64,000 bases of DNA from Squalus acanthias. Taxonomy: Eukaryota. The stretch is taken from assembly GCA_030390025.1 (NCBI GenBank), contig CM059431.1, forward strand, positions 95,172,001 to 95,236,000. Reading direction: 5' to 3'. Position numbers and translations under genes: made by a program. The notes under the pieces were generated by a model that did no database searches, was not told the origin of the DNA, and was given only the letters and a program-made list of their open reading frames with translations. Every line of letters starts with the position of its first letter. Position 1 is the stretch's first letter. Positions 13,640 to 46,635 of this stretch are shown here, one piece after another.

Positions 13640-16441
13640 CAACCTGGCACAGCATGTGGCAGCCATATGGGTATAATGCGTAAAAGTTAAGTAAATCTGG
13701 CCATAATGAGCCCATCCCTGGCCTCCGGGGCAGCAATGTGCTCGGGTACTGGTGGGATCTGGACCGCAGCTTCCTCCTGCTCCTCCTCCTCCTCTGATGA
13801 TGAGGCTGTGCACTCAGTGCCTTGCTCCTCATGCAGCGTTAATCTTCGCTGCTGCACTATGTTGTGCAGTCCATGACGATTCTGGAGACCCTGGCTGGTG
13901 CGTACTGAAGGGTTTGCATCCCAGAGTACTTAAGGAGGTGGCCTTGGAAATAGTGGATGCATTGACGATCATTTTCCAACATTCCTTAGACTCTGGATCA
14001 GTTCCGATGGAGTGGAGGGTGGCCAATGTAACCCCTCTTTTTAAAAAAGGAGGGAGGGAGAAAGCAGGGAATTATAGACCGGTCAGCCTGACATCGGTCG
14101 TGGGTAAAATGATGGAAGCAATTATTACAGATGTCATAACAGACCATTTGGAAAGTGGCGACATGATAGGTCCAAGTCAGCATGGATTTGTGAAAGGGAA
14201 ATCATGCTTGACAAATCTTCTGGAATTTTTTGAGGATGTTTCCAATAAGGTGGACAGGGGGGAACCAGTAGATGTGGTGTATTTGGACTTTCAGAAGGCC
14301 TTCGACAAGGTCCCACACAAGAGATTGGTGAGCAAAGTTAAAGCACATGGGATTGGGGGTAATGTGTTGACGTGGATTGAGAACTGGTTGGCACACAGGA
14401 AACAAAGAGTAGGAGTAAATGGGTACTTTTCAGAATGGCAGGCAGTGACCAGCGGGGTACCGCAGGGTTCGGTGCTGGGACCCCAGCTGTTTACATTATA
14501 TATTAATGATTTGGACGAAGGGATTAAATGTAATATCTCCAAATTTGCGGATGACACTAAATTGGGAGGCAGTGTGAACAATGAGGAGGATGCTAAGAGG
14601 CTACAGAGTGACTTGGACAGGTTGGGTGAATGGGCAAATGTATGGCAGATGAAGTACAATGTGGATAAATGTGAGGTTATCCACTTTGGTGGTAAAAATA
14701 GAGAGGCGGACTATTACCTGAATGGTGGCAGATTAGGGAAAGGGGAGGTGCAACGAGACCTGGGCGTCATGGTACATCAGTCACTGAAGGTGGGAATGCA
14801 AGTGCAGCAGGCAGTCAAGAAAGCAAACGGAATGATGGCCTTCATAGTAAGGGGATTTGAGTACAGGAGTAGGGAGGTGATGCTGCAGTTGTACAGGGCC
14901 TTGGTGAGGCCACACCTGGAGTATTGTGCGCAGTTTTGGTCTCCTAACTTAAGGAAGGACATTCTTGCTATTGAGGGAGTGCAGCGAAGGTTCACTAGAT
15001 TGATTCCTGGGATGGCCGGACTGACATATCAAGAAAGATTGGGTCAACTGAACTTGTATCCTCTGGAGTTCAGAAGAATGAGGGGGGATCTTATAGAGAC
15101 ATTTAAAATCCTGACTGGTTTAGACAAATTAGATGCGGGCAGAATGTTCCCAATGTTAGGGAAAACTAGAACCAGGGGTCACAGTCTAAGGATTAAGGGG
15201 AAGCCATTTAAGACTGAGCTGAGGAGGAACTTCTTCACCCAGAGAGTGGTGAATCTATGGAATTCTCTTCCACAGAAGGTTGTTGAGGCCAGTTCGCTAA
15301 ATATATTCAAAAGGGAGTTAGATATAACACTCACAACTAGGGGGATCAAGGGGTATGGCGAGAAAGCAGGAATGGGGTACTGAGGTAGCATGTTCAGCCA
15401 TGAACGCATTGAATGGCGGTGCAGGCTCGAAGGACCGAATGGTCTACTCCTGTACCTATTTTCTATGTTTCTATGTTTCTATATGTCAAGGCATCTGAAG
15501 TGTATTTTCAGCATGCCTATCGTCTGCTATATGACACAGCTGGTGGAAATGTGGCTTTCACTATATCTCTCCTGGGCCTCAGTACCTGGCCTCCTCAAGG
15601 GTGTCATGAGCCACGTCTTCAGTGGATAGCCCTTGTCTCCAAGCAGCCAGCCAGGAAGTCTGTTTGGAGGAGCGAAGAGCGAAGGGAGGGTGGACTGGTG
15701 CAGGATGAGTCATGGCAGCTGCCAGGGAATTTGGCGCACATATGCATGATAATCTTCCTATGGTTTCAGACGAGCTGCACATTGAGGGAGTGGAAGCCCT
15801 TGCAGTTGACAAAGACTCTTGGGTTATGATGGGATGCCCTGATTGCCACATGTGTGCCGTCAATGACACCCTGCACCCGTGGGAAGCCAGCCAGAGCGAC
15901 ATAGGCCAGCGCCCACTCAGTAACACTGGCTTCATCAGTGGCAAAGTTGATATAATTGGCAGACTTGTCAAATGGGGCATCGGTGGCCTGTGTGATGCAT
16001 CTGTGGGCGGCCGACTGCAAGATGCCACAAATGTCTGCTGCAGATCCCTGGAAGGAGCCTGAGGTGAAGAAGTTGAGGGCAATGGTGACTTTGACAGCCA
16101 CTGGTAAGGCATGTCCACCAGGTCCTCTGGGCTGCAGGTCTTGGTCCAGCAATCTGCAAATGTCTGACGACCTGGCGTGATAGCCTGAGTCTCCTTTGGC
16201 ACTGCTGCTCAGTCATGTTGAGGAAGCTCATCCTCTGCCCGTATACCCTGTGCTGGGGGCATTGCTTCTGGCGCAGTGCAGCCCTGCGCTGATGCCCTCT
16301 GTCCTGTGCAGCATCAGGTGGTTGAGGAGAAGGTTGGTGATGTTGTTGTTGGTGCTGCTGGTGTGCCTGGTGCTGCTGGTGTTGGGGCTCATCATGGTCA
16401 GATTCTGAGGACCAAGGTGAGACAGTATAAACGATAGCCAT
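13640..16441 (-). pseudogene. Harbinger DDE transposase (HARBI1-like), split by CR1 13906-15481
   Basis: [61 protein letters not shown]; frameshifts; 3' end approximate. Confidence 0.9.
13906..15481 (+). mobile_element. Young 5'-truncated CR1 with an uninterrupted RT frame
   Basis: About 490 aa without a stop (NYRPVSLTS, YLDFQKAFD, GVPQGSVLGP, KFADD) ending at 15383; (TTCTATGT) tail. Confidence 0.95.
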
Positions 16442-16973
16442 GCTGATGGAATAGATGGCAGGTCAAGTAGAGATGACAGAAGCAATCTGTCAATGGTGTA
16501 GTAGACTCTAACAATGAGGTGAGACTGGATGGCAAAATTGCTGGAAACACTTGCAGCCAGTAGAAATCTAGATCTGTGCTGGCAATGCTGTCAGCAACAG
16601 CTTCTGCCTGAGGAAAGTGATCAGCTGTGAGGTGGGAGTTTTTATTGTACTTTCCATGCTGTGCACTAATCAGCTGAATCAATGGCCACTCAACTTCCGC
16701 CTCAGGTTGACAGACGTGGTTCCCGAGCTGTGTGATTCCTGTGGTCATCCAGTGAAATTCGAAAGGTACAGGTTAAAAAGACTCTTAAGGGTTTGACAAG
16801 TACCTAATAATGACTTGAATTAGCTCGCCCGCCTCTGCCGTTTGGGTCACTGCCGTGCCAACAAACGCGTCCAGGAATACGGCAGGTTCCCAACTCGCTA
16901 CAAGATTTTTCAAAATTCCCACCCGACCCGTCTCCGATCGCGCCCACACGAACCCCAGAAAATTCCAGCTATA

Positions 16974-17855: not shown

Positions 17856-19152
17856 TTTTTTTATTCATTCATGGGATGTGGGCGTCGCTGGCAAGGCCAG
17901 CATTTATTGCCCATCCCTAACTGCCCTTGAGAAGGTGGTGATGAGCTGCCTTCTTGAACTGCTGCAGTCCGTGTGGTGAAGGTGCTCCCACAGTGCTGTT
18001 AGGGAGGGAGTTCCAGGATTTTGACCCAGCGACGATGAAGGATCGGTGATATATTTCCCAGTCAGGATGGTGTGTGACTTGGAGAGGAACTTGGAGGTGG
18101 TGGTGTTCACCACCTGCCCTTGTCCTTCTAGGTGGTAGAGGTCGCGGGTTTGGGAGGTGCTGTCGAAGAAGCCTTGGTGAGTTGCTGCAGTGCATCTTGT
18201 AGATGGTACACACTGCAGCCACGGTACGCCGGTGGTGGAGGGAATGAATGTTTAAGGTGGTGGATGGGGTGCCAATCAAGTGGGCTGCTTTGTTCTGGAT
18301 AGTGTCGAGCTTCTTGAGTGTTGTTGAGCTGCACTCATCCAGGCAAGTGGAGAGTATTCCATCACACTCCTGACTTGTGCCTTGTAGATGGTGGAAAGGC
18401 TTTGGGGAGACAGGAGGTGACTCACTTGCCACAGAATACCCAGCCTCTGACCTGCTCTTGTAGCCACAGTATTTATGTGGCTAATCCAGTTAAGTTTCTG
18501 GTCAGTGGTGACCCCTAGGATGTTGATGGTGGGGGATTCAATGATGGTAATGCTGTTGAATGTCATGGGGAGGTGTGTAGACTATTGTTGGAGATGGTCA
18601 TTGCCTGGAACTTGTATGGCATGAATGTTACTTGTCAGCCCAAGCCTTAATTTTGTCCAGGTCTTGCTGCATGCGGGCACGCTTCATGATCTGAGGAGTG
18701 CGAATGGAACTACACACTGTGCATTCATCAATGAACACTTCTGACCTTATCATTGAGGGAAGGTCATTGATGAAGCAGCTGAAGATGTTTGGGCCTAGGA
18801 CACTGCCCTGAGGAACTACTGCAGCAATGTCCTGGGGCTGAGATGATCGGCATCCAACAACTACAACCATCTTCCTTTGTGCTAGGTATGACTCCAGCCA
18901 GTGGAGAGCTTCCCCTGATTCCCATTAACTTCAGTTTTACTAGTGCTCCTTGATGTCACACTCGGTCAAATGCTGCCTTGATGTCTTCTTCTAATTAGTG
19001 TTCAACATAGAGGAGCACTGATTTATCAGCTGAGAGAGGGCAGTAGGTGGTAATCAGCAGGAGGTTTCCTTGCCCATGCTTGACCTGAAGCTATGAGACT
19101 TCATGGGGTCCGGAGTCAATGTTGAGGACCCCCAGGGCCACTGCCTCCTGAC
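17856..19152 (-). mobile_element. Zenon-like CR1-group LINE, internally deleted (EN fragment joined to RT and 3' end)
   Basis: Reverse-complement similarity to ~40020-40180 and ~41510-42630. Confidence 0.85.
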
Positions 19153-19155
19153 CTG

Positions 19156-19344
19156 GGATACAGTAGCATAGTGGTTATGTTACTGGACTAGTAATCCAAA
19201 GGCTTGGACTAATGATCCAGGGACGTGAGTTCAAATTCCACCACGGCAGCTGGGGGGTTTAATTAAATAAATCTGGAATAAAAATCTGATATCTGTAATG
19301 GTGACCATGAAACTATCGGATTTTGACTAAAAAAAAAATCTGCT
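19156..19344 (+). mobile_element. tRNA-derived SINE/LINE head, same as 39382 onward
   Basis: A box TAGCATAGTGG, arms TGGACTAGTAATCCA and TGGACTAATGATCCA, B box GAGTTCAAATTCC. Confidence 0.8.
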
Positions 19345-19906
19345 TCATCCAATGGCAGAGTACGGACTGTTCACTGAATAGAGTCATCCAATGGCAGAGT
19401 ACGGACTGTTCACTGAATAGAGTCATCCAATGGCAGAGTACGGACTGTTCACTGAATAGAGACATCCAATGGCAGAGTACAGACTGTTCACTGAATAGAG
19501 TCATCCAATGGCAGAGTACGGACTGTTCACTGAATAGAGTCATCCAATGGCAGAGTACGGACTGTTCACTGAATAGAGTCATCCAATGGCAGAGTACGGA
19601 CTGTTCACTGAATAGAGTCATCCAATGGCAGAGTACAGACTGTTCACTGAGTAGAGACATCCAATGGCAGAGTACGGACTGTTCACTGAATAGAGTCATC
19701 CAATGGCAGAGTACGGACTGTTCACTGAATAGAGTCATCCAATGGCAGAGTACGGACTGTTCACTGAATAGAGACATCCAATGGCAGAGTACAGACTGTT
19801 CACTGAATAGAGACATCCAATGGCAGAGTACAGACTGTTCACTGAATAGAGACATCCAATGGCAGAGTACAGACTGTTCACTGAATAGAAACATCCAATG
19901 GCAGAG
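19345..19906. repeat. 39-bp minisatellite, ~14.4 copies
   Basis: Unit TCATCCAATGGCAGAGTACGGACTGTTCACTGAATAGAG, head-to-tail, near-identical. Confidence 0.98.
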
Positions 19907-24084: not shown

Positions 24085-25478
24085 TGTTTCATTCATGGGA
24101 TGTGGGCGTCGCTGGCAAGGAGCATTTATTGCCCACCCCTATTTGCCCTTGAGAAGGTGGTGGTGAGCTGCCTTCTTGAACCGCTGCAGTCCATGTGGTG
24201 AAGGTACTCCCATAGTGTTGGTAGGGAGGGAGTTCCAGGATTTTGTCCCAGCGACGATGAAGGAATGGCGATATATTTCCAAGTCAGGATGGTGTGTGAT
24301 TTGGAGGGGAACTTGAAGGTGATGGTGTTCCCATGTGCCTGCTGCCCTTGCTCTTCTAGGTGGTATAGGTCGTGGGTTTTGGAGGTGCTGTCGAAGAAGC
24401 CTTAGTGAGCTACGTCAGTGCATCTAATAGATATTACACACTACAGCCACTGCAGTAACATTCGCGCCACACAAGTGCCAGACAATGACTATCTCCAATA
24501 AGCGAGAGTCTAACCACTAATCCTTGACATTCAATGGCATAACCATCACCGAATCCCCCACCATCAATATCCTGGGGGTCACCATTGACTAGAAACTTAA
24601 CAGGACCAACCACATAAATATTATGGCAACAAGAGCAGGTCAGAGGCTGGGTATTCCGCAGGAATGTCTCACATCCTGACTCCCCAAAGCCTTTCCACCA
24701 TCTACAAGGCACCAGTCAGGAGTGTGATAGAATACTCTCCACTTGTCTGGATGAGTGCAGCTCCAACAACACTCAAGATGCACTGCAGCAACTCACCAAG
24801 GCTTCTTCGACAGCACTTCCCAAATCCGCGACCTCTACCCACCTAGAAGGACAAGGGCACCAGGTACATGGGAACACCACCACCTCCAAGTTCCCCTCTA
24901 AGTCACACACCATCCTGACTTGGAAATATATCACCGTTCCTTCATAGTCGCTGAGTCAAAATCCTGGAACTCCCTCCCTAACAGCACTGTGGGAGTACCT
25001 TCACCACTTGGACTGCAGCGGTTCAAGAAGGCGTCTCACTACCACCTTCTCAAGGGCAATTAGGGATGGGCAATAAATGCTGGCCTTGCCAGCGATGTCC
25101 ACATCCCAGGAACGAAGTAAAAAAATTGTGGCTGGTCCAGTTAAGTTTCTGGTCAATGTTAACCAGAATGACCAATGGATGTTGATGGTGGGAGATTCGG
25201 CAAAGGTAATGCTGTTGAATGTCAAGGGGCGGTGGTTAGACTCTCTCTTGTTGGAGACAGTCATTGCCTGGCACTTGTGTGGCGTGAATATTACTTGCCA
25301 TTTATCAGCCCAAGCCTGACTGTCATCCAGGTCTTGCTGCATGCGGGCATGGACTGCTTCATTATCTGAGGAGTTGTGAATGGAACTGAACACTGTGCAA
25401 TCATCAGCGAACATCCCCACTTCTGAACTTATGATGGAGGGAAGGTCATTGATGAAGCAGCTGAAGATGGTTGGGCTA
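24085..25478. mobile_element. Zenon-like LINE fragments: - (24085-24453), + (24454-25125), - (25126-25478)
   Basis: Shared 3' end GGGCAATAAATGCTGGCCTTGCCAGCGA; RT motif SEVGMFADDC. Confidence 0.85.
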
Positions 25479-25494
25479 CTCAACAACAACAACA

Positions 25495-27022
25495 ATTTAC
25501 ATAGGATTACGGCACAGAAAAAAGAAGGCTGAGGGGTGACCTAATAGAGGCCTATAAAATTATGAAAGGATTTGATAAAGTGGATACAGAGAGAATGTTT
25601 CCACTTGTGAAGAAGAGCATAACTAGAGGCCATCAATATAAGATAGTCACCAAGAAATCCAATAGGGAATTCAGAAGAAACCTATTTACCCAAAGAGTGG
25701 TGAGAATTTGGGACTTGCTACCACAGGGAGTGGTTGAAGTGAATAGTATAGATGCATTTAAGTGGAGGCTAGATAAGCATATGATGGAGAAGGGAATAGA
25801 GGGTTATGCTGATAGAGTTAGATGAGGAAAGACGGGAGGATGCTCAAGTGGAGCATAAACACCGACATGGACTGGTTGGGCCGAATAGCCTGTTTCTGTG
25901 CTGTATATCCTATGTAATTCTATGTCATAGAGAACCAAGCAACAACAACAAGAACAACAACGTGTATTTATTTAGCGCCTTTAATGTAGTAAAATGTCCC
26001 AAGATGCTTTGCAGGAGCGTTATGGATTTTGTGGCGGGGACTGAAGACAATGGCTTTGGTCTTCCCAATATTTAAGCAGAATACAGAGAGTACAGAGGAG
26101 AACTGAAAAAAGAAGTAAGTGGTGGCGGGGTGGGGGTGGGGCAAAGTGAGTGTATAAGAATAGATTAGCAAGACATAAAAGGGAACACAAAAGTCTTTTA
26201 TAAACATATAAATAGTAAAAGGGTAGTCAAAGGAAGGTACGGCCGATTAGGGACCAAAATGGAGATCTTCTTGTGGAGGCAGAGGATATGGCTGAGGTAA
26301 TAAAGGAATACTTTGCAACTGGCTTCACAAATGAAGTGGATGCTGCCAATGTCACAGTAAACGAGGAGGTGGTAGAGAAATTGGATAGGATAAAAATTGA
26401 TAAAGAGGTACTTAAAAGTTTGGCAGTGCTCAATATAGACAATTAACCTGGTCCGGATGGGATACATCCTAGATTGCTGAGGGAAGTAAGGGTGGAAATC
26501 ATTGAGGCTCTGGCCACAATCTTCCAATCCTCCTTAGATATGGGGGCAGTGCCAGAGGACTGGAGGGTTACAAATGTTAAACCCCTGTTTAAAAAAGGAG
26601 AGCGGGATAAACTCAGAAACTACAAGCCACTCAGCTTAAAGTCGGTGGTAGGGAAACTTTTAGAGATAATAACCCGGAACAAAATTATTTTGCATTTGGA
26701 AAAGTATGGTCTAATAAGTGAAAGTCAGCATGGATTTGTTAAAGGCAAATCGTGTTTAACTAACTTTATCGAGTTCTTTGATGAAGTAACTGAGAGGGTT
26801 GATGAGGGTCGTGCAGTTGATGTTGTGTATATAGACTTCCAAAAGGCATTTGATAAAGTACCACATAATAGACGTGTTAGCAAAATTGAAGCCCATGGAA
26901 TTAAAGGGGCAGTGGCAGCATGGATACGCAATTGGCTAAGAGACAAAATGCATTGTGTAGTGGTGAACGGTTGTTTTTCAGACTGGAGGGAGCTATACCG
27001 TGGTGTTCCCCAGGGGTCAGTG
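25495..27022 (+). mobile_element. Two CR1 fragments (25495-25925, 26075-27022) separated by an L2-tail remnant on -
   Basis: RT motifs SQHGFVKGKSCLTN, YIDFQKAFD, GVPQGSVL; CR1 tail. Confidence 0.85.
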
Positions 27023-38981: not shown

Positions 38982-39059
38982 CTATCTATCTGTCTGTCTG
39001 CCTCTTCTATCTATCTATCTATCTATCTGTCTGTTTGTCTATCTATCTATCTATCTATC
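38982..39059. repeat. (TCTA/TCTG)n microsatellite
   Basis: Read directly from the sequence. Confidence 0.95.
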
Positions 39060-39066
39060 ACACTAT

Positions 39067-39360
39067 GGCCGGAATTTTCCGAGGTGGTAGCGGGCGTGAT
39101 CGGTGGTGGGTCGGGTGGGAAACCGCTGTCATCCACCCCCCACGTGCCTTTCCCCCAGGCGCGTATGTCATCGTGGAGCCGACCTGACTGGCAGCGGTGG
39201 GCAACCCAATTGAGATGATTAACAGCTAGCTGTCAGACGCTTGACAGGCTTTTTAAACTTACTTTTTTAATTTCCCTGCATGGCCACGGCAACCACGCTG
39301 CTCGGGAAGCACGTCTGTCAACCTGAGGCGGGAGTTCCGTGGCCATCGCTCCAGCTGATT
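39067..39360. mobile_element. Harbinger terminal fragment
   Basis: GGCCGGAATTTTCC...GGGCGTGATCGG...GGGTCGGGTGGGAA matches the reverse complement of the 16970 end. Confidence 0.7.
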
Positions 39361-39381
39361 ATTTGACTGCATCAAATGTTC

Positions 39382-42300
39382 AGTGGTAGTTTAGTGGTAA
39401 TGTCACTGAGCTAGTAATCCCGAGGTCTGGACTAATGATCCAGAGTTGTGAGCTCAAATCCCACAAAGGCAGCTGGGAAATTTAAATTCAGTAAATTAAA
39501 TAAATCTGGAATAAAAAACTATCAGCAGTAATGGTGACCATGAAACAATCGGATTGTCGTAAAAACCCATCTGGTTTACTAATGTCCTTCAGGGAAAGAA
39601 ATCTGCTGTCGTTACCCTGGTCTGGCCTATACATGACTCCAGACTCACAGCAATGTGGTTAACTCTTAACTGCCCTCTGAAATGGCCTAGCAAGTCACTC
39701 AGTTGTAACTAACTGCTACGAAACATAATAAGAATGAAACCGGACGGACCACATGGCATCGACCTTGGCACCGGCTACGGACACGACAATGGCACACCTA
39801 GCCCAGTCGACCCTACAAAGTCCTCCTAACCAACATCTGGGGACTTGTGCCAAAATTGGGAGAACTGTCCCACAGACAAGACAAGCAACAGCCTGACATA
39901 GTCATACTGACAGAATCGTACCTTTCAGCTAATGTCCCAAACTCCTCCATCACCATCCCTGGGTATGTCCTGTCCCACAGGCAGGACAGATCCACCAGGG
40001 GTGGTGGCACAGTGGTATACAGTCGAGGAGGAGTGGCCCTGGGAGTCCTCAACATTGACTCCGGACCCCATGAAGTCTCATGGTTTCAGGTCAAGCATGG
40101 GCAAGAAAACCTCCTGTTGATTACCACCTACTGCCCTCCCTCAGCTGATGAATCAGTACTCCTCCATGTTGAACACCACTTGGAAGAAACACTGAGAGTA
40201 GCAAGGGCACAGAATGTACTATGGGTGGGGGACTTCAATGTCCATCAGCAAGAGTGGCTCGATAGCACCACTACTGACCGAGCTGGCTGAGTCCTGAAGG
40301 ACATAGCTGCCAGTCTGGGCCTGCGACAGGTGGTGAGAGAACCAACACGTGGGAAAAACCTACTTGACCTCGTCCTCACCAATCTACCTGTCGCAGATGC
40401 ATCTGTCAATGACAGTATTGGTAGCAATGACCACCGCACAGTCATTGTGGAGACAAATCCCGACTTCACACTGAGGACACCCTCCATCGTGTTGTGTGGC
40501 ATTACCACCATGTTAAATGGGATAGATTCTGAACAGATCTAGCAGCTCAAAACTGGGCATCCAAGAAGCACTGTGGCCCAACAGCAGCAGCAGAATTGTA
40601 TTCCACCACAATCTGTAACCTCATGGCCTGGCATATCCCTCACTCTACCATTACCACCAAGTCAGGGGACCAACCCTGGCTCAATAAGGAGTGTAGAAGG
40701 GCATGCCAGGAGCAGCATCAGGCGGACACCTAAAAATGAGGTGCCAACTTGGGGAAGCTGCAACACAGGACTACATGCATGCTAAAAAGCAGAAGCAGCA
40801 TGCTATAGAAAGGGCTAAGCGAGCCCACAATCAACGGATCAGATCAAAGCTCTGCAGTCCTGCCACATCCAGTCGTGAATGGTGGTGGACCATTAAACAA
40901 CTAACGGGAGGAGGAGGCTCCATGAATATCCCCATCCTCAATGATGGTGGAGCCCAGCACGTGAGTGCAAAAGACAAGGCTGAAGCGTTTGCAACCATCT
41001 TCAGCCAGAAGTGCCAAGTGGATGATCCATATCGGCCGACTCCTGAGGTCCCCTCCATCACAGAAGCCAGTCTTCAGCCAATTCGATTCACTCCACGGCT
41101 GAGCGCACTGGATACATCAAAGGCCATGGGCCCCGACAACATCCCGGCTATCGTGCTGAAAACTTGTGCTCCAGAACTAGCCATGACTCTAGCCCAGCTG
41201 TTCCATTACAGCTACAACACTGGCATCTATCCAACAATGTGGAAAACTGCCCAGGTATTTCCTGTCCACAAAAAGCAGGACAAAATCCAATCTGGCCAAT
41301 TACTGCCTCAACAGTCTACTCTCAATCATCAGCAAAGTGATGGAAGGTGTCATCGACAGTGCTATCAAGCGGCACCTACTCACCAAAAACCTGCTCACTG
41401 ATGCCCAGTTTGGGTTCCGCCAAAACCACTCGGCTCCTGGCCTCATTACAGCCTTGGTCCAAACATGGACAAAGGAGCTGAATTCCAGAGGTGAGGTGAG
41501 AGTGACTGCCCTTGACATCAAGGCTGCATTTGACTGAGTGTGGCATCAAGGAGCCCTAGCAAAACTGAAGTCAATGGGAATCGGGGGAAAACGCTCCACT
41601 GGCTGGAGTCATACCTAGCACAAAGGAAGATGGTTGTGGTGGTTGAAGGTCAATCATCACAGCCCCAGGATATTGCTGCCGGAGTTCCTCAGGGCAGTGT
41701 CCTAGGCCCAACCATCTTCAGCTGCTTCATCAATGACCTTCCCTCCAACATAAGGTCAGAAATGGGGATGTTCGCTGATGATTCTACAGTGTTCAGCGCC
41801 ATTGACAACTCCTCAGATAATGAAGCAGTCCATGCCCTCATGCAACAAGACCTGGACGACGTTCAGGCTTGGGCTGATAAGTGGCAGGTAACATTCGCAC
41901 CACATAAGTGCCAGGCAATGACTATCTCCAACAAGCGAGAGTCTAACCACCTCCCCTTGACATTCAATGGCATTACCCTCGCTGAACCCCCACCATCAAC
42001 ATCCTGGGGGTCACCATTAACCAGAAGCTTAACTGGACCAGCCGCATAAATACTTTGGCAACAAGAGCAGGTCAGAGTTTAGGTATTCTGTGGCGAGTGT
42101 CTCACCTCCTGACTCAACAGAGCCTTTCCACCATCTACAAGGCACAAGTAAGGAGTGTGATGGAATACTCTTCACTTGCCTGGATGAGTGCAGCTGCAAC
42201 AACACTCAAGAATCTTGACACCATCCAGGACAAAGCAGCCCGCTTGATTCGCTCCCTCCACCACTGGCGTACCGTGGCTTCAGTGTGTACCATCTACAAG

Positions 42301-42630
42301 ATGCACTGCAGCAACTCGCCAAGGCTTCTTCGGCAGCACCTCCCAAATCTGCAGCCTCTTGTACCTAGAAGGACAAGGGCAGCAGGCGCATGGGAACACC
42401 AGCACCTCCAAGTTCCCCTCCAAGTCACACACCATCCTGACATAGAAGTATATCGCCGATCCTTTGTCGTTGCTGGGTCAAAATCCTGGAACTCCCTACC
42501 TAACAGCACTGTGGGAGTACCTTCACCGCACGGACTGCAGCTGTTCAAGAAGGCGGCTCACCACCACCTTCTCAAGGGCAGTTAGGAATGGGCAATAAAT
42601 GCTGGCCTTGCCAACGATGCCAACATCCCA
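39382..42630 (+). mobile_element. Near full-length ORF1-less CR1-group (Zenon-like) LINE with a tRNA-derived 5' head
   Basis: Pol III A/B boxes at the 5' end; a single EN-RT ORF from ATG 39734 to stop 42585 with several disruptions; short 3' UTR. Confidence 0.85.
39734..42585 (+). pseudogene. APE endonuclease plus reverse transcriptase (disrupted)
   Basis: NIWGL, DIVILTES, VGDFNVH, LDLVLTN, SNDH; GPDNIP, QFGFR, ALDIKAAFD, GVPQGSVLGP, MFADD, WNSLP. Confidence 0.9.
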
Positions 42631-42631
42631 T

Positions 42632-44935
42632 AAACTGCAGAGTACACTATCTATCCCCCGAATTATCAAATCCCCTATGCCTATAACATTTCTTTTCTGC
42701 CCCTTCCCCCCCATTGGACTGCCTCCTGCTCTACATTGCAATGGTTAGCATTCTGCTCATCCTCTCTGCAGCCTTCATCCTTATCCTCACAGGTAGCTAG
42801 TAGAATGTACCTGTTGGATAGGACCAGTGTCTTTGGTACTTCCTCCTCTACCTCCTCTAGGTTCCCCTTACCCTGCTAACTGGCAGTCGCACTCTCCCCT
42901 TCCTGCATCTGTGCTTTTCTCTGAGGTGTGACTGTACTCTGGAGAAAACTATCCAGATATTCCTCCCCCTCCTTTATGTGTCAGAGTGTCTCTAATGCAC
43001 ACTCCAGCTCAAGGACTCTGAGCTGGAGTGTCTCAAGGTAAAGACATTTCCTGGAGATGTGGCAATCTGTGACCGTCTTGCTGTCCACAAACTCCCACAT
43101 ACTGCAGTCCTGACACACTACATTTGCTGACATTTCTAATCTTTATTAATTGTTAGCATTAATGTATTTGTAGAGTTAATAGAATCACTTGAAGTCTAGT
43201 ATTAAATAGTTGATGGATTAGTTTGATTTTGAATTAATTGGTAATTAATTATGCTGATTATTTATGTATAGCAGATGCTTATTAATGCAAATTGGATCCT
43301 TTTAATGTTAGTTTCCTGCATTTAGTTTATTTTATCCCCATATATCTATTTAGCCTCTTAGGTCTATTTGTTTACCAAAAGAATATTATCTTCTTAATAC
43401 TTAAGATTCTGAGGGACAAAATCAATCTCCACTTGGAGAGGCAAGGATTAATCAGGGTTAGCCAACATGGCTTTGTCAAGAGAAGATCATGTCTGACTAA
43501 TTTGATTGAATTTTTTGAGGGGGTGACTAGGTGTGTGGATGAGGGTAACGCAGTGGATGTGGTATACATGGATTTCAGTAAGGCCTTCGATAAAGTCCCG
43601 CACAGGAGACTGGTCAAGAAGGTAAGAGCCCATGGAATCCAGGGTGACTTGGCACATTGGATACAAAACTGGCTCAGTGGCAGAAGGCAGAGGGTGATGG
43701 TCGAAGGTTGTTTTTGTGACTGGAAGCCTGTGGCCAGTGGGGTACCACAGGGATCGGTGCTGGGTCCCTTGCTGTTTGTGGTCTACATTAACGACTTGGT
43801 TATGAATGTAAAAGGTATGATCAGTAAGTTCGCGGATGATACAAAAATTGGTAGGGTGGTAAATAGCGAGGAGGGTAGCCTCAGTCTGCAGGACGATATA
43901 GATGGGTTGGTTAGATGGGCGGAACAGTGGCAAATGGAATTTAATTTGGAAAAGTGCGAGGTGATGCACTTTGGAGGGACTAACAAGGCAAGGGAATACA
44001 CAATGAATGGTAAGACCCTAGGCAAGACGGAGGGTCAGAGGGATCTTGGTGTGCAAGTACACACATCCCTGAAGGCGGCGGAACAGGTGGATAAGGTGGT
44101 AAAAAAGGCATATGGGATACTTGCATTCATTAGCCGAGGCATAGAATATAAGAGCAAGGAGGTTATGATGGAGCTGTATAAAATACTGGTTAGGCCACAT
44201 CTGCAATACTGTGTGCAGTTCTGGTCGCCACACTACAGGAAGGATGTGATCGCTTTGGAGAGGGTGCAGAGGAGATTCACCAAAATGTTACCCGGGCTGG
44301 AGTGCTTCAGCTATGAAGAGAGACTGGGCAGATTGGGTTTGTTTTCCTTGGAGCAGAGGAGGCTGAGGGGGGACATGATTGAGGTGTACAAAATTATGAG
44401 GGGCATAGATAGGATGGATACTAAGGAGCTTTTTCCCTTAGTAGAGGGGTCTATAACAAGGGGGCATAGATTCAAGGTAAAGGGCGGGAGGTTTAGAAGG
44501 GATTTGAGAAATAACTTTTTCACCCAGAGGGTGGTTGGAGTCTTGAACTCACTGCCTGAAAGGGTTGTGGAGGCAGGAACCCTCACAACATTCAAGAAGC
44601 ATTTGGATGAGCACTTGAAATGCCATAGCATACAAGGCTACGGACCAAATGCTGGAATATGGGATAAGATTAGACAGGGCTTGATGGCCGGCGCGGACAC
44701 GATGGGCCGAAGGGCCTCTATCCGTGCTGTATAACTCTATAAATGATAAATTAAGCACTTGGCTCTAATTCCTCAGGCTCCGCTAACTATGATAACTGTG
44801 CTGACTATGATGTCACTTTTTGAGTTTTTGCCTCTGTTTGTCTGGTATCTGCCATTCTGGGTCTCCTGATAGGCTCTGCTGCTGCCGGCTCTCACTTTCT
44901 GTTTGAATGTGCTGCTCGGGGTTTCCTGCTACGCT
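42632..44935 (-). mobile_element. CR1 5' part (5' UTR plus ORF1 zinc-finger/esterase start), interrupted by 43403-44740
   Basis: - strand MSANVVCQDCSMWEF near 43130 and VIGIGDLIIRGID (GDS-I-IR-like esterase block). Confidence 0.65.
43403..44740 (+). mobile_element. 5'-truncated CR1 with an open RT frame
   Basis: SQHGFVKRRSCLTN, YMDFSKAFD, KFADD uninterrupted within ORF 43292-44734. Confidence 0.95.
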
Positions 44936-45960
44936 TTACATATATCACAGGCTCTAATGTATACCTCCAGATTCTAAATCATGTCGCAAGCTCTAATGTA
45001 TATCTACAGATTCTAATGTATGTCACATGTTCTAATATATGTCACATGTTCTAATGTATGTTTCCAGATTCTACTGTATGTCGCAGGTTCTAATGTATGT
45101 TTTTTTTATTCGTTCATGGGATGTGGGTGTCGCTGGCAAGGCCAGCATTTATTGCCCATCCCTAATTGCCCTTGAGAAGGTGGTGGTGAGCCGCCTTTTT
45201 GAACCGCTGCAGTCCGTGTGGTGAAGGTACTCCAACAGTGCTATTAGGTAGGGAGTTCCAGGATTTTGACCCAGCGACGATGAAGGAACAGTGATATACT
45301 CCAAGTCAGGATGGTGTGTGACTTGGAAGAGAATTGGAGGTGGTGGTATTCCCATGCACCTGCTGCCCTTGTCCTTTTAGGTGGAAGAGGTTGCGGGTTT
45401 GGGAAGTGCTGCCAAAGAAGCCTTGGCGAGTTACTGCAGTGCATCTTGTAGATGGTGCACACTGCAGCCACGGTACGCCGGTGGTGGAGTGAATGAATAT
45501 TTAAGGTGGTGCCAATCAAGCGAGCTGCTTTGTCTTGGATGATGTTGAGCTTCTTGAGTGTTGTTGGCATCTTGAGTATGTTTCCGGATTCTAATGTTTC
45601 TCATAGAATCTGATGTATGTCAGAGGTTCTCATGTATAGCTCCAGATTCTAGTTTATGTCTCCATGTTCTAGGTTATCTCGCAGGTGCTAATATATATCT
45701 CCAGATTCTAATGTACATCACAGGTTCTAAAGTATATCATAGGTTCTAATGAATGTTTCCATATTCTACAGTATATTGCAGGTTCTAATGTATGTCGCAG
45801 GTATTAACATATGTTTCCGGATTCTGATGTTTGTCACAGATTTTAATGTATGTCAATAGTTCTAATGCAAATCTCTAGATTCTTATGTATGTCACAGGTT
45901 CTAATGTTTATCTCCAGGTTCTAATGTATGTCACAGATTCTAATGTATATCGCAAGTACT
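44936..45960. repeat. Degenerate ~19-bp minisatellite (CAGGTTCTAATGTATGTCA-like), split by a Zenon-like 3' fragment at 45102-45570 (-)
   Basis: TTCTAATGTA recurs at ~19-bp spacing; related short patch at 51665-51790. Confidence 0.85.
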
Positions 45961-46635
45961 AATTTATTAACCCAAGTGACAATTAATTTTGTCTCGGATT
46001 ATTGCCACTAAATGTTTCCCCACCACTAACATTAGGCTGACTGGCCTGTCATTGCCAGGTTTATCTATATTCTCTTATTTGAAAAATAATGTAACATTTG
46101 CAATCCTCCAGGCCTCTGGCACTGGTCCCATATATAAGGAGGATTAGAAGATTGAGGCCAGAGCCTCCACAATTTCCACTCCTATTTTCTTTAGCAACCT
46201 CAGATGCATCCCAGCTGGACTGGTTACTTTTCTGCTTTGAGCATTGTCAATATTTTAAGTACCTCCTCTTTATATATTTTTAGCCTACACAATTTCTCTC
46301 CTACCTCCTCCTTTACTGTGACATTGGCAGCATCCTCTTTAGTGAAACAGATGCAAAATGCTAATTTAGTGCCTCAGCCAAGCCTTCTGCCTCCACAAGA
46401 AGATTTCCTTTTTAGTCCCCAATTGGCCCCACCCTTTACTATGTATATGTTTAGAAAAAACTTTTGGGTTCCTTTTTATGTTACCCGCTAATCTATTCTC
46501 ATATACTCTCTTTGTCCCTCTTATTTCCTTTTTCTGTGCTCCTCTGTACTTTTCGTATTCAGCTTGGTTCTCTACTGTATTATGAGCCTAACATTTATCA
46601 TAAGTCTCCTTTTACTGTTTCATTTAAATCTCTAT

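Follow-up and report, generated by a model that had tools for sequence, protein, structure and literature searches.

Autonomous LINEs are, by rule, Pol II transcripts, and to our knowledge the origin of SINE bodies is largely unknown. A locus in the shark Squalus acanthias touches on both matters. Specifically, within the window (the whole 64,000-nucleotide stretch of DNA that was analysed), a tRNA-related head is followed by a leader of about 270 nt, an endonuclease-reverse transcriptase LINE and a 3' tail that ends at 42634. Does the head drive transcription of the LINE, does it reflect exchange with a partner SINE, or does it stand in front of the LINE by accident? The preliminary description, made from the letters of the sequence, favoured the first of these possibilities; the analysis presented here partly confirms its observation, largely supports the structure it proposed and partly supports its interpretation. 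The available data are best explained, with a probability that we put at roughly 0.55, by a model in which the window holds a degenerate full-length copy of a single-ORF shark LINE that has 5' leader and 3' tail in common with a partner SINE, and in which head-bearing composites of the two recur.

Structure of the element

The features on which this model is built are collected in Table 1. At the 5' end, the A box that had been placed at 39386-39396 (TAGTTTAGTGG) and the B-box-like motif that had been placed near 39450 (GAGCTCAAATCCC, 39450-39462) are both located on reading the sequence, about 50 nt apart, and both head copies of the window carry motifs that resemble the A box and the B box. 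Nearly all contig depth carries a T at 39453, with which the B-box-like motif reads GAGTTCAAATCCC. By these boxes the head is of the SINE type and tRNA-related, but its score under the tRNA model is low: against a gathering score of 29 bits, Rfam assigns 17.5 bits to the head at 39382 (E 0.16, in a 116-nt search) and 17.3 bits to the head at 19163 (E 0.19). The same model has no match at E<=1 in a 3.6-kb search, and ARAGORN finds 0 tRNAs in the whole 64-kb window.

Table 1. Coordinates of the element, of its parts and of related sequences in the window
Feature	Position	Strand	Basis or remarks
tRNA-related head	39382..39465	+	Sequence reading; Rfam tRNA model below gathering score
A/T-rich linker after the head	39466..39579	+	Ends in A run 39561-39565; common to the second head copy
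Leader ("body") common to SINE form and LINE	39580..39707	+	Contig joints; whale-shark gene models
Short leader and probable N-terminal coding stretch	39708..39829	+	Three-frame translation; alignments of P0017, P0006 and P0152
Apurinic-type endonuclease block	39802..40467	+	Frame 1, one in-frame stop; Pfam; tblastn with P0012 residues 25-238
Linker, reverse-transcriptase and C-terminal blocks	40485..42585	+	Frames 3, 2, 3, 2, 1; four in-frame stops
3' tail common to the SINE form	42535..42634	+	Contig joints land at 42535-42583; tails in the window
Second copy of head and linker	19163..19342	+	Ends in A10; no leader continuation, no tail
Internally deleted LINE fragment (f1)	17868..19162	-	Equivalent to ~40013-40188 plus 41514-42634
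Four LINE-family 3' fragments, alternating orientation	24092..25476		0 T4+ on sense strands
LINE-family 3' fragment	45112..45566	-	Between two blocks of 19/39/58-bp satellite

Downstream of the leader, the earlier identification of an APE-RT element is borne out by Pfam, which detects endonuclease domains (Exo_endo_phos, 8.3e-07; Exo_endo_phos_2, 1.4e-06) and a reverse transcriptase (RVT_1, 7.7e-17, at 41630-42049), while tblastn aligns the element colinearly with the 962-aa protein P0012 over residues 25-958. With an endonuclease followed by a reverse transcriptase on one strand, the element is a non-LTR retrotransposon (LINE). The interval from the head to the ATG at 39734 is free of ORFs of at least 80 aa, in agreement with the ORF1-less structure described before. 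That ATG had also been thought to run straight into one APE-RT frame, which is not the case: its frame reaches a stop after 31 codons (39827-39829), the endonuclease lies in a different frame, and the coding part as a whole is broken into six blocks that occupy three frames, at least 5 frame changes and 5 in-frame stops being present. Because of these six frame blocks and 5 in-frame stops, the copy at 39382-42634 is a dead pseudogene, and its longest ATG ORF, at 232 aa, is not the intact ORF of an autonomous copy. A weak match to mir-1306 at 39943-40011 (21 bits vs 70, E 0.36) was dismissed as chance.

At its 3' end the copy reads ...CCCATAAA, without the GAATGAAT that precedes the terminal A run (A8) in the LINE fragment at 17868. 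Four other LINE-family tails in the window are 88-92% identical to its tail at 42535-42634. No target-site duplication was recognised around 39382-42634 and the two flanks are unrelated and not continuous with each other, as had been noted from the start.

A SINE form built from both ends of the LINE

The evidence for a partner SINE comes from contigs. Joints that lead from 39679 to 42543, from 39707 to 42547 and from 39707 to 42548 occur in contigs of 4/4 sequencing runs and of at least 3 organisms, and 8 of the 15 joints listed (4779 more exist) link 39605-39770 to 42364-42583. In the SINE-form contigs, the end of the leader (39679-39707) is followed immediately by the final ~90-100 nt of the LINE, and it is this switch to the LINE tail that sets the 3' limit of the leader stretch 39580-39707. 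A SINE thus built from LINE leader and LINE tail, with the ORF removed, exists. By its contig joints it is a short unit present in many copies that ends in the 3' tail of its partner LINE, and its body has its homologue in the 5' region of that LINE (39580-39707), as is the case in SINEs derived from bipartite LINEs. The preliminary description had seen in the LINE a likely parent of a SINE sharing its head: the form with leader and tail is found, and a tRNA-related head on it is suggested by the two head copies of the window, not by the SINE-form contigs.

The step from 39707 to 39708 is not spanned by any of the 32 contig pieces listed (out of 427,369), which counts against the composite explanation. 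In contig record 17, the alignment ends at 39734 and leaves 87 nt of the contig over. A dip in contig depth is seen at 39710-39837 in three runs; contig depth cannot rank the parts of a gene.

Relatives in other sharks

Gene models of another species also place the leader ahead of the ORF. Of 15 close protein fragments compared, 6 reach the start of the endonuclease, all six being separate whale-shark gene models, and 4 of these 6 continue upstream into a homologue of 39579-39733 (P0006, P0152, P0060 and P0002). Specifically, P0006 and P0152 are colinear with the window from 39682, across 39682-39999 (E 8e-37 and 1.5e-31, respectively); P0060 matches 39581-39742 (E 1e-11) and is without about 39708-39822; and P0002 matches 39579-39617 weakly (E 0.007). 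P0017 begins at the equivalent of the ATG at 39734. Recurrence of the head-to-ORF junction had been proposed as a check on the element, and the leader-ORF part of that junction (39682-39740) does recur in 2 whale-shark loci, P0006 and P0152. Because four whale-shark models carry the leader upstream of the endonuclease, the junction of leader and ORF is a feature of the family, and since it recurs in another species, an isolated chimeric event does not account for it. P0060, in turn, has 27 N-terminal residues without a match to the head or the linker; this whale-shark copy therefore differs upstream of ~39580, a point against the composite explanation.

The LINE family is old and widespread in sharks, as follows from a sawshark protein that is 73% identical to the reverse-transcriptase block. 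The best long protein relatives are unnamed and 44-48% identical over this block, and the protein search yielded no intact close relatives, the close matches being fragments of 71-290 aa. Comparison of the leader, translated in the ATG frame, with longer proteins gave 2 candidates, neither of which scored. Matches to an 18-mer of the element were found at 26 loci in metagenome contigs, none of them homologous to the element by BLAST, and a 19-mer gave 2 bacterial MAG matches in genome contigs and 0 in viral contigs; both counts are close to the estimated chance level.

How head and LINE came together

The second head copy of the window bears directly on the joining of head and LINE. Its head (19163-19247) is 80% identical to the one at 39382, its linker (19261-19354) is 79.8% identical to 39494-39584, with the register lost after the A run, and a 39-bp satellite (19345-19906) follows it. 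The 5' end of the LINE fragment at 17868 abuts the 5' end of this head, head to head and with at most 1 nt between them, so that the reverse complement of the locus presents the head, at most 1 nt, and then the LINE from ~40013. The terminal A run of the fragment appears in complementary form as T8 at 17860-17867, and both A-rich 3' ends of the pair at 17868-19342 point outward.

Twin-priming 5' inversions of L1 were reportedly described by Ostertag and Kazazian in 2001. The shark locus has the same geometry, in which opposite segments meet 5' end to 5' end; unlike in L1, what is inverted is a tRNA head with its linker rather than coding sequence of the LINE. Around 17860-19342, no target-site duplication was recognised. 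If a single RNA was the template, ~435 nt are missing between the two segments; two template RNAs are possible.

One account of these arrangements is coincidental or secondary adjacency: the A-rich stretch 39561-39565, following a short tRNA SINE that was already in place, would have been the insertion site of the LINE, or head and LINE would have become neighbours by a later rearrangement. On this view the sequence from ~39580 onward is no more than the 5' UTR of the LINE itself, to which the head is unrelated. Several observations fit: homology between the two head copies stops around the A run, at ~39577-39584, a point at which A10 closes the second copy; P0060 is homologous to the window only from ~39581 onward; the A-rich 3' end of the LINE makes priming at an A/T-rich target plausible; and no target-site duplication brackets 39382-42634 with its unrelated flanks. 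However, a second chance event would be needed for the other head, which abuts a LINE-family fragment within 1 nt, an adjacency that by our own estimate has a chance of ~1 in 1000. The head copies, furthermore, align beyond the A run to ~39584, and no short SINE that stops at the A run is seen on its own. Of the explanations considered, we regard coincidence as the least probable.

The composite model accommodates both junctions. The partner SINE consists of the 5' leader of the LINE (39580-39707 as a minimum) and of its final ~90-100 nt; a tRNA-related head would stand in front, and head-bearing composites would arise repeatedly during target-primed reverse transcription. A composite RNA is one possible source of the joining of head and LINE; or the reverse transcriptase may change templates by way of the leader that LINE RNA and the abundant SINE RNA have in common. 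Alternatively, the copy in the window may descend from a fusion of tRNA and LINE, from which the SINE would have been born by internal deletion. We infer that the functional LINE is transcribed by Pol II like other LINEs. In favour of the composite explanation speak the SINE-type joints, the contiguity of leader and ORF, the second head-LINE junction and the decay of the window copy. There is no SINE tail at the boundary of head and LINE and no SINE remainder after 42634, and the locus is therefore neither a whole SINE beside a LINE nor a LINE inside a whole SINE. Against it stand the lack of a target-site duplication with flanks that do not continue each other, and the depletion of T runs, which a purely Pol II model does not predict.

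T runs and the question of Pol III

The sense strand of 39382-42630 has no T4+ run at all and 18 A4+ runs, as an earlier line-by-line scan had indicated (none, and well over a dozen), and the count of T4+ is also 0 over 3,253 nt. The contrast drawn before between this family and CR1 holds as well: T4+ is absent from all six other LINE-family fragments of the window and from 4,826 nt of LINE-family coding blocks, whereas the control CR1 copy at 13906-15383 has 5, and 23 other LINE-like coding blocks in the window have 74 in 20,020 nt (3.7 per kb; 22/23 with at least one). The first T4+ beyond the element is at 42693, 59 nt past its end. With A and B boxes at its 5' end and no T4+ before its 3' end, the element has the arrangement of a type-2 Pol III unit, which is necessary and insufficient for such transcription.

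These features are compatible with a LINE transcribed by Pol III, in which the tRNA-derived head would be a working internal promoter, a terminator-free RNA of ~3.3 kb would be both messenger and template, the SINE would be an ORF-less derivative by internal deletion, and selection would exclude T runs from the sense strand. The spacing of the two boxes and the single ORF with its short leader fit this proposal, as do the two heads of the window, both of which are joined to LINE-family sequence and neither of which is a stand-alone tailed SINE. The joint of the inverted copy, ~2 nt from the A box, likewise fits a template RNA that starts at the head.

The strength of the T-run argument depends on the null model. 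Synonymous-codon shuffles predict 3.15 T4+ vs 0 observed (P(0)=0.02), and the codon-aware test also finds TTT (13 vs 21.5 expected, P 0.003) and degenerate T5 motifs (3 vs 7.8 expected, P 0.037) depleted; mononucleotide shuffles predict 4.9 (P=0.004). When dinucleotide content is kept, however, 2.2 are expected and the absence is not significant (P(0)=0.076). The depletion is thus modest, with P about 0.02-0.08 by null model: codon shuffling, which had been suggested as a control, places T4+ below expectation. The absence of T4+ also has explanations compatible with Pol II. The family is T-poor (21% vs 24-28%) and perhaps of more recent origin than the control copies, whose composition has drifted towards that of the genome, and its fragments overlap the same 3' kilobase, hence they are not independent tests.

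Further points weigh against a Pol III LINE. Uncapped Pol III RNAs are poor messengers; both heads score under the Rfam threshold; and the window copy is a pseudogene with no intact close relative in protein searches. Human Pol III, moreover, is described as terminating at degenerate T-rich signals too (PMC3141230), and the absence of T4 therefore does not guarantee read-through over 3.2 kb. Pol III transcription of the LINE accordingly appears unlikely, if somewhat less so than coincidence. We are equally doubtful of its extension, by which the RNA would be translated at a low level and reverse-transcribed, making the element a protein-coding autonomous Pol III retrotransposon. Were it true that the head drives transcription of the full element, the Pol II rule for autonomous LINEs would be overturned, a question that is directly testable in shark tissue or cells.

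Relation to known systems

In the open-access literature (Repbase and Dfam being outside the scope of the search), no earlier account of a Pol III LINE or of a tRNA-headed LINE was found. Related chimeras are on record: retrocopies combining U6 and L1 are said to arise by template switching of the reverse transcriptase, in work attributed to Buzdin in 2002. For PittSINE, the acquisition of a tRNA head on a CR1 tail is described by Suh 2017 (PMC5729268). Like these chimeras, the shark composites carry the sequence of a small Pol III RNA on the 5' side of LINE sequence and in the orientation of the latter; unlike them, the joined part is a SINE head together with a leader that belongs to the LINE as well.

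Among elasmobranchs, the pairs treated in Ohshima 2013 (PMC3747384) include the V-SINE HE1 with the LINE HER1, SacSINE1 with a CR1-4_DR-like LINE, and SINE2-1_CM with CR1-2_CM. As in these pairs, a putatively tRNA-derived shark SINE has its 3' tail in common with a LINE, here one that may be of CR1 type. In the description given there, to which the comparison with the shark pair is confined, only 3' tails are mentioned as common (PMC3747384).

SINEs that combine 5' and 3' parts of a LINE, as descendants of bipartite nonautonomous LINEs, are represented by Bov-tA, WALLSI, CoeSINE4 and others in the account of Kojima 2018 (PMC5786205), which attributes LINE 5' contributions to the RTE and Vingi clades only. 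The shark SINE form resembles them in that it retains the leader from the 5' end of a LINE and the tail from its 3' end but has lost the ORF. In contrast to the RTE and Vingi partners of that account, the partner here is an endonuclease-reverse transcriptase LINE of ~960 aa with an A-rich ...GAATGAAT(A)n end; both the 5' leader and the 3' tail of a shark LINE, probably of a type other than those given by Kojima, are present in a tRNA SINE. The scheme outlined in the same paper (PMC5786205) has the head added to an already deleted LINE, whereas the shark copy, with a head on a complete LINE, represents an extra intermediate. Taken together, the shark pair offers a concrete system for studying the birth of SINEs, in which addition of a head onto a full LINE, followed by deletion, can be set against its addition onto a LINE that was already deleted.

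Results

The LINE copy runs from a tRNA-related head into its coding part and 3' tail (table), with matches to Exo_endo_phos (8.3e-07), Exo_endo_phos_2 (1.4e-06) and RVT_1 (7.7e-17) in Pfam. The head had been described as carrying an A box and a B-box-like motif, and both are present. ARAGORN made no tRNA calls across the window, and the Rfam tRNA model scored the head at 17.5 bits (E 0.16 in a 116-nt search; gathering score 29), with no match at E<=1 in a 3.6-kb search. A second head copy at 19163-19247, 80% identical to the first, scores 17.3 bits and has better boxes (TAGCATAGTGG and GAGTTCAAATTCC) than the element's own. Together, the low score, the lack of ARAGORN calls and the second copy indicate that the head is, by its sequence, a diverged tRNA derivative of SINE type rather than a tRNA gene. 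No ORF of at least 80 aa lies between head and ATG, so that this copy lacks ORF1, as had been proposed.

Features of the LINE copy, and whale-shark gene models related to it (window positions)
Feature	Position or extent	Strand	Remark
tRNA-related head	39382-39465	+	A-box-like and B-box-like motifs
A-box-like TAGTTTAGTGG	39386-39396	+	within head
B-box-like GAGCTCAAATCCC	39450-39462	+	within head
A/T-rich linker	from head to ~39579	+	
Leader	39580-39733	+	then ATG 39734
ATG	39734	+	precedes endonuclease domain
Endonuclease domain, reverse transcriptase, 3' tail	downstream of ATG 39734, in this order; tail ends 42634	+	
P0006	colinear from 39682 through endonuclease		E 8e-37
P0152	colinear from 39682 through endonuclease		E 1.5e-31
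P0060	matches 39581-39742, then endonuclease; without ~39708-39822		E 1e-11
P0002	matches 39579-39617 (weak), then 39761 onward		E 0.007
P0017	begins at equivalent of ATG 39734		
P0151	begins at equivalent of 39789		

The copy itself is a pseudogene. Specifically, the frame opened by the ATG ends after 31 codons and the endonuclease reads in another frame; the coding part, as delimited by alignment to a related 962-aa protein (P0012) and our own block definition, comprises six blocks in frames 1, 3, 2, 3, 2 and 1 with five in-frame stops, and the longest ATG ORF measures 232 aa. Given these frame changes and stops, the claim that the leader runs straight into one APE-RT frame fails for this copy and holds at best for the family. 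Upstream, a (TCTA)n-type microsatellite occupies 39000-39060, ~320 nt before the head, and the flank at 39190-39372 is a repeat with 77-85% identity to a minus-strand copy at 16656-16839, whose own continuation does not reappear after 42634.

With the endonuclease block as query, phmmer yielded 3,286 matches at E<=0.001, of which 120 reach E<=1e-10 and two reach E<=1e-30, the close relatives all being short fragments. Nine of 15 close relatives retrieved for upstream comparison start within the endonuclease or carry unrelated upstream sequence, as expected of 5'-truncated copies; the other six, separate whale-shark gene models, extend to the endonuclease start. A sawshark protein shares 73% identity with the RT block. 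The leader part of the head-to-ORF junction thus recurs in whale shark (P0006 and P0152), and the head part lies beyond the reach of protein searches, which are blind to the non-coding head.

Logan contigs from four runs that represent at least three coded organisms (two runs look like DNA, two are guessed to be RNA) were aligned to 39070-42900 at 80% likeness. Among the 15 joints listed, with 4,779 more beyond these, eight link 39605-39770 directly to 42364-42583, and the joints 39679 to 42543, 39707 to 42547 and 39707 to 42548 each occur in all four runs. These joints point to a SINE body that ends at ~39680-39707 and continues into the final ~90-100 nt of the LINE, in line with the predicted SINE relative. 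The tRNA head was not seen on SINE-form contigs among the pieces listed; in both window copies it is joined to the linker and leader start. The SINE-body stretch is thus also the LINE's 5' leader in at least one other species, and the whale-shark contiguity of leader and endonuclease, taken with the joints, indicates that LINE and SINE share both ends.

The element was sought in public DNA from prokaryotes, metagenomes and viruses, with matches at chance level only. The head/LINE boundary shows no SINE tail and no SINE remainder follows 42634, which rules out both a complete SINE beside the LINE and insertion of the LINE into a complete SINE. The window's one other head likewise has a link to the element's LINE family: its 5' end (19163) adjoins, within 1 nt, the 5' end (~40013 equivalent) of an internally deleted minus-strand LINE fragment, 17868-19162, which meets the plus-strand SINE head and linker (together 17868-19342). 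The A-rich 3' ends face outward (A10 at ~19331-19340; the LINE's terminal A8, present as its complement, at 17860-17867), a geometry suggestive of twin-priming inversion, possibly involving two different RNAs. A single head-bearing RNA that lost ~435 nt at the inversion could explain it, as could a LINE RNA and a SINE RNA used in one integration event. By our own estimate, such head-LINE adjacency would arise by chance in ~1 in 1000 cases; that the LINE by coincidence inserted where a short SINE ends in its A-rich stretch, which requires two coincidences in one window, is improbable.

Against a fixed head count the lack of any match of P0060 residues 1-27 to head or linker, the end of the two heads' homology near an A run (~39577-39584) and contig record 17, whose alignment ends at 39734 with 87 nt left over; a module boundary near 39580 is therefore possible. 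The best reading, to which we assign a probability of about 0.55, is a LINE/SINE pair sharing 5' leader and 3' tail, in which head-bearing composites arise repeatedly and the functional LINE would be transcribed by Pol II, like other LINEs. The composites could form in the course of target-primed reverse transcription, through strand transfer between LINE RNA and SINE RNA via the common leader, or could descend from an original tRNA-LINE fusion, ORF loss from which gave the SINE.

A 39-bp satellite (19345-19906; 14.4 copies, 97% matches) begins directly after the second head copy. The family's four 3' fragments at 24092-25476 alternate in orientation (minus, plus, plus, minus). Two of them, both with the 3' tail, adjoin by their 5' ends at 24450/24455, which suggests double-primed insertions from two RNA molecules. 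Related 19/39/58-bp satellite blocks (44941-45100 and 45576-45967) flank the 3' fragment 45112-45566, as if it had inserted into satellite, and could allow the family's target-site duplication to be read.

On the sense strand, 39382-42630 contains no run of four or more T (T4+) and 18 of four or more A (A4+); six other family fragments, overlapping one and the same 3' kilobase, also have no T4+, versus five in the control CR1 copy 13906-15383, as the preliminary description had reported. The strength of this absence varies with the null model: mononucleotide shuffles predict 4.9 T4+ (P 0.004), dinucleotide shuffles only 2.2 (P(0) 0.076) and synonymous-codon shuffles of 2,724 coding nt 3.15 (P(0) 0.02); the depletion is modest. 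Against the codon shuffles, TTT is depleted (13 versus 21.5, P 0.003) and A4+ enriched (18 versus 12.4, P 0.0125), an asymmetry between the strands for which avoidance of T does not by itself account; degenerate T5 motifs number 3 versus 7.8 expected (P 0.037). A window-wide tblastn search that used 23 long LINE proteins as queries produced 28 blocks: four clean family blocks contain no T4+ in 4,826 nt, and the other 23 contain 74 in 20,020 nt, with at least one in 22 of 23 (block 24980-25612, family mixed with other sequence, was left out). T runs are unusually scarce in this family, yet the signal is suggestive, not decisive, since the family is T-poor overall (21% versus 24-28%), may be younger than the control copies and is represented by overlapping fragments.

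Discussion

Transcription of the element by Pol III from its head would agree with the boxes at the extreme 5' end, the absence of T4+ over 3.25 kb, the single ORF, a tail that needs no polyadenylation and the tie of both window heads to LINE sequence. We consider it unlikely, as the T-run statistics are weak, the case for it is one of sequence features, and uncapped RNA is translated poorly. Pol III can, furthermore, terminate non-canonically at degenerate T-rich signals, according to PMC3141230. The original observation is real and partly beyond chance; its structural half (common head and leader, recurrent junction, SINE relative) is largely supported, and its Pol III half is unproven.

In the papers searched, no LINE is described that has a tRNA head or is transcribed by Pol III; the shark element may be catalogued in Repbase, Dfam or SINEBase. 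Shark SINE/LINE pairs with common 3' tails are described (HE1/HER1, SacSINE1 with a CR1-4_DR-like LINE, SINE2-1_CM/CR1-2_CM; PMC3747384), also from elephant shark (PMC1845163), and template switching has been proposed as the way in which a CR1 tail acquired a tRNA head (PMC5729268). SINEs with both 5' and 3' LINE parts are already known; Kojima's survey traces LINE 5' contributions to the RTE and Vingi clades only and proposes that the head was added onto an already deleted, bipartite LINE (PMC5786205). Judged by anatomy, the shark SINE form resembles those bipartite SINEs in deriving from both ends of its LINE; in contrast to that scheme, the head also sits on the full LINE. The element would thereby add to the bipartite-SINE scheme a SINE derived from both LINE ends whose head is carried by the full LINE as well.
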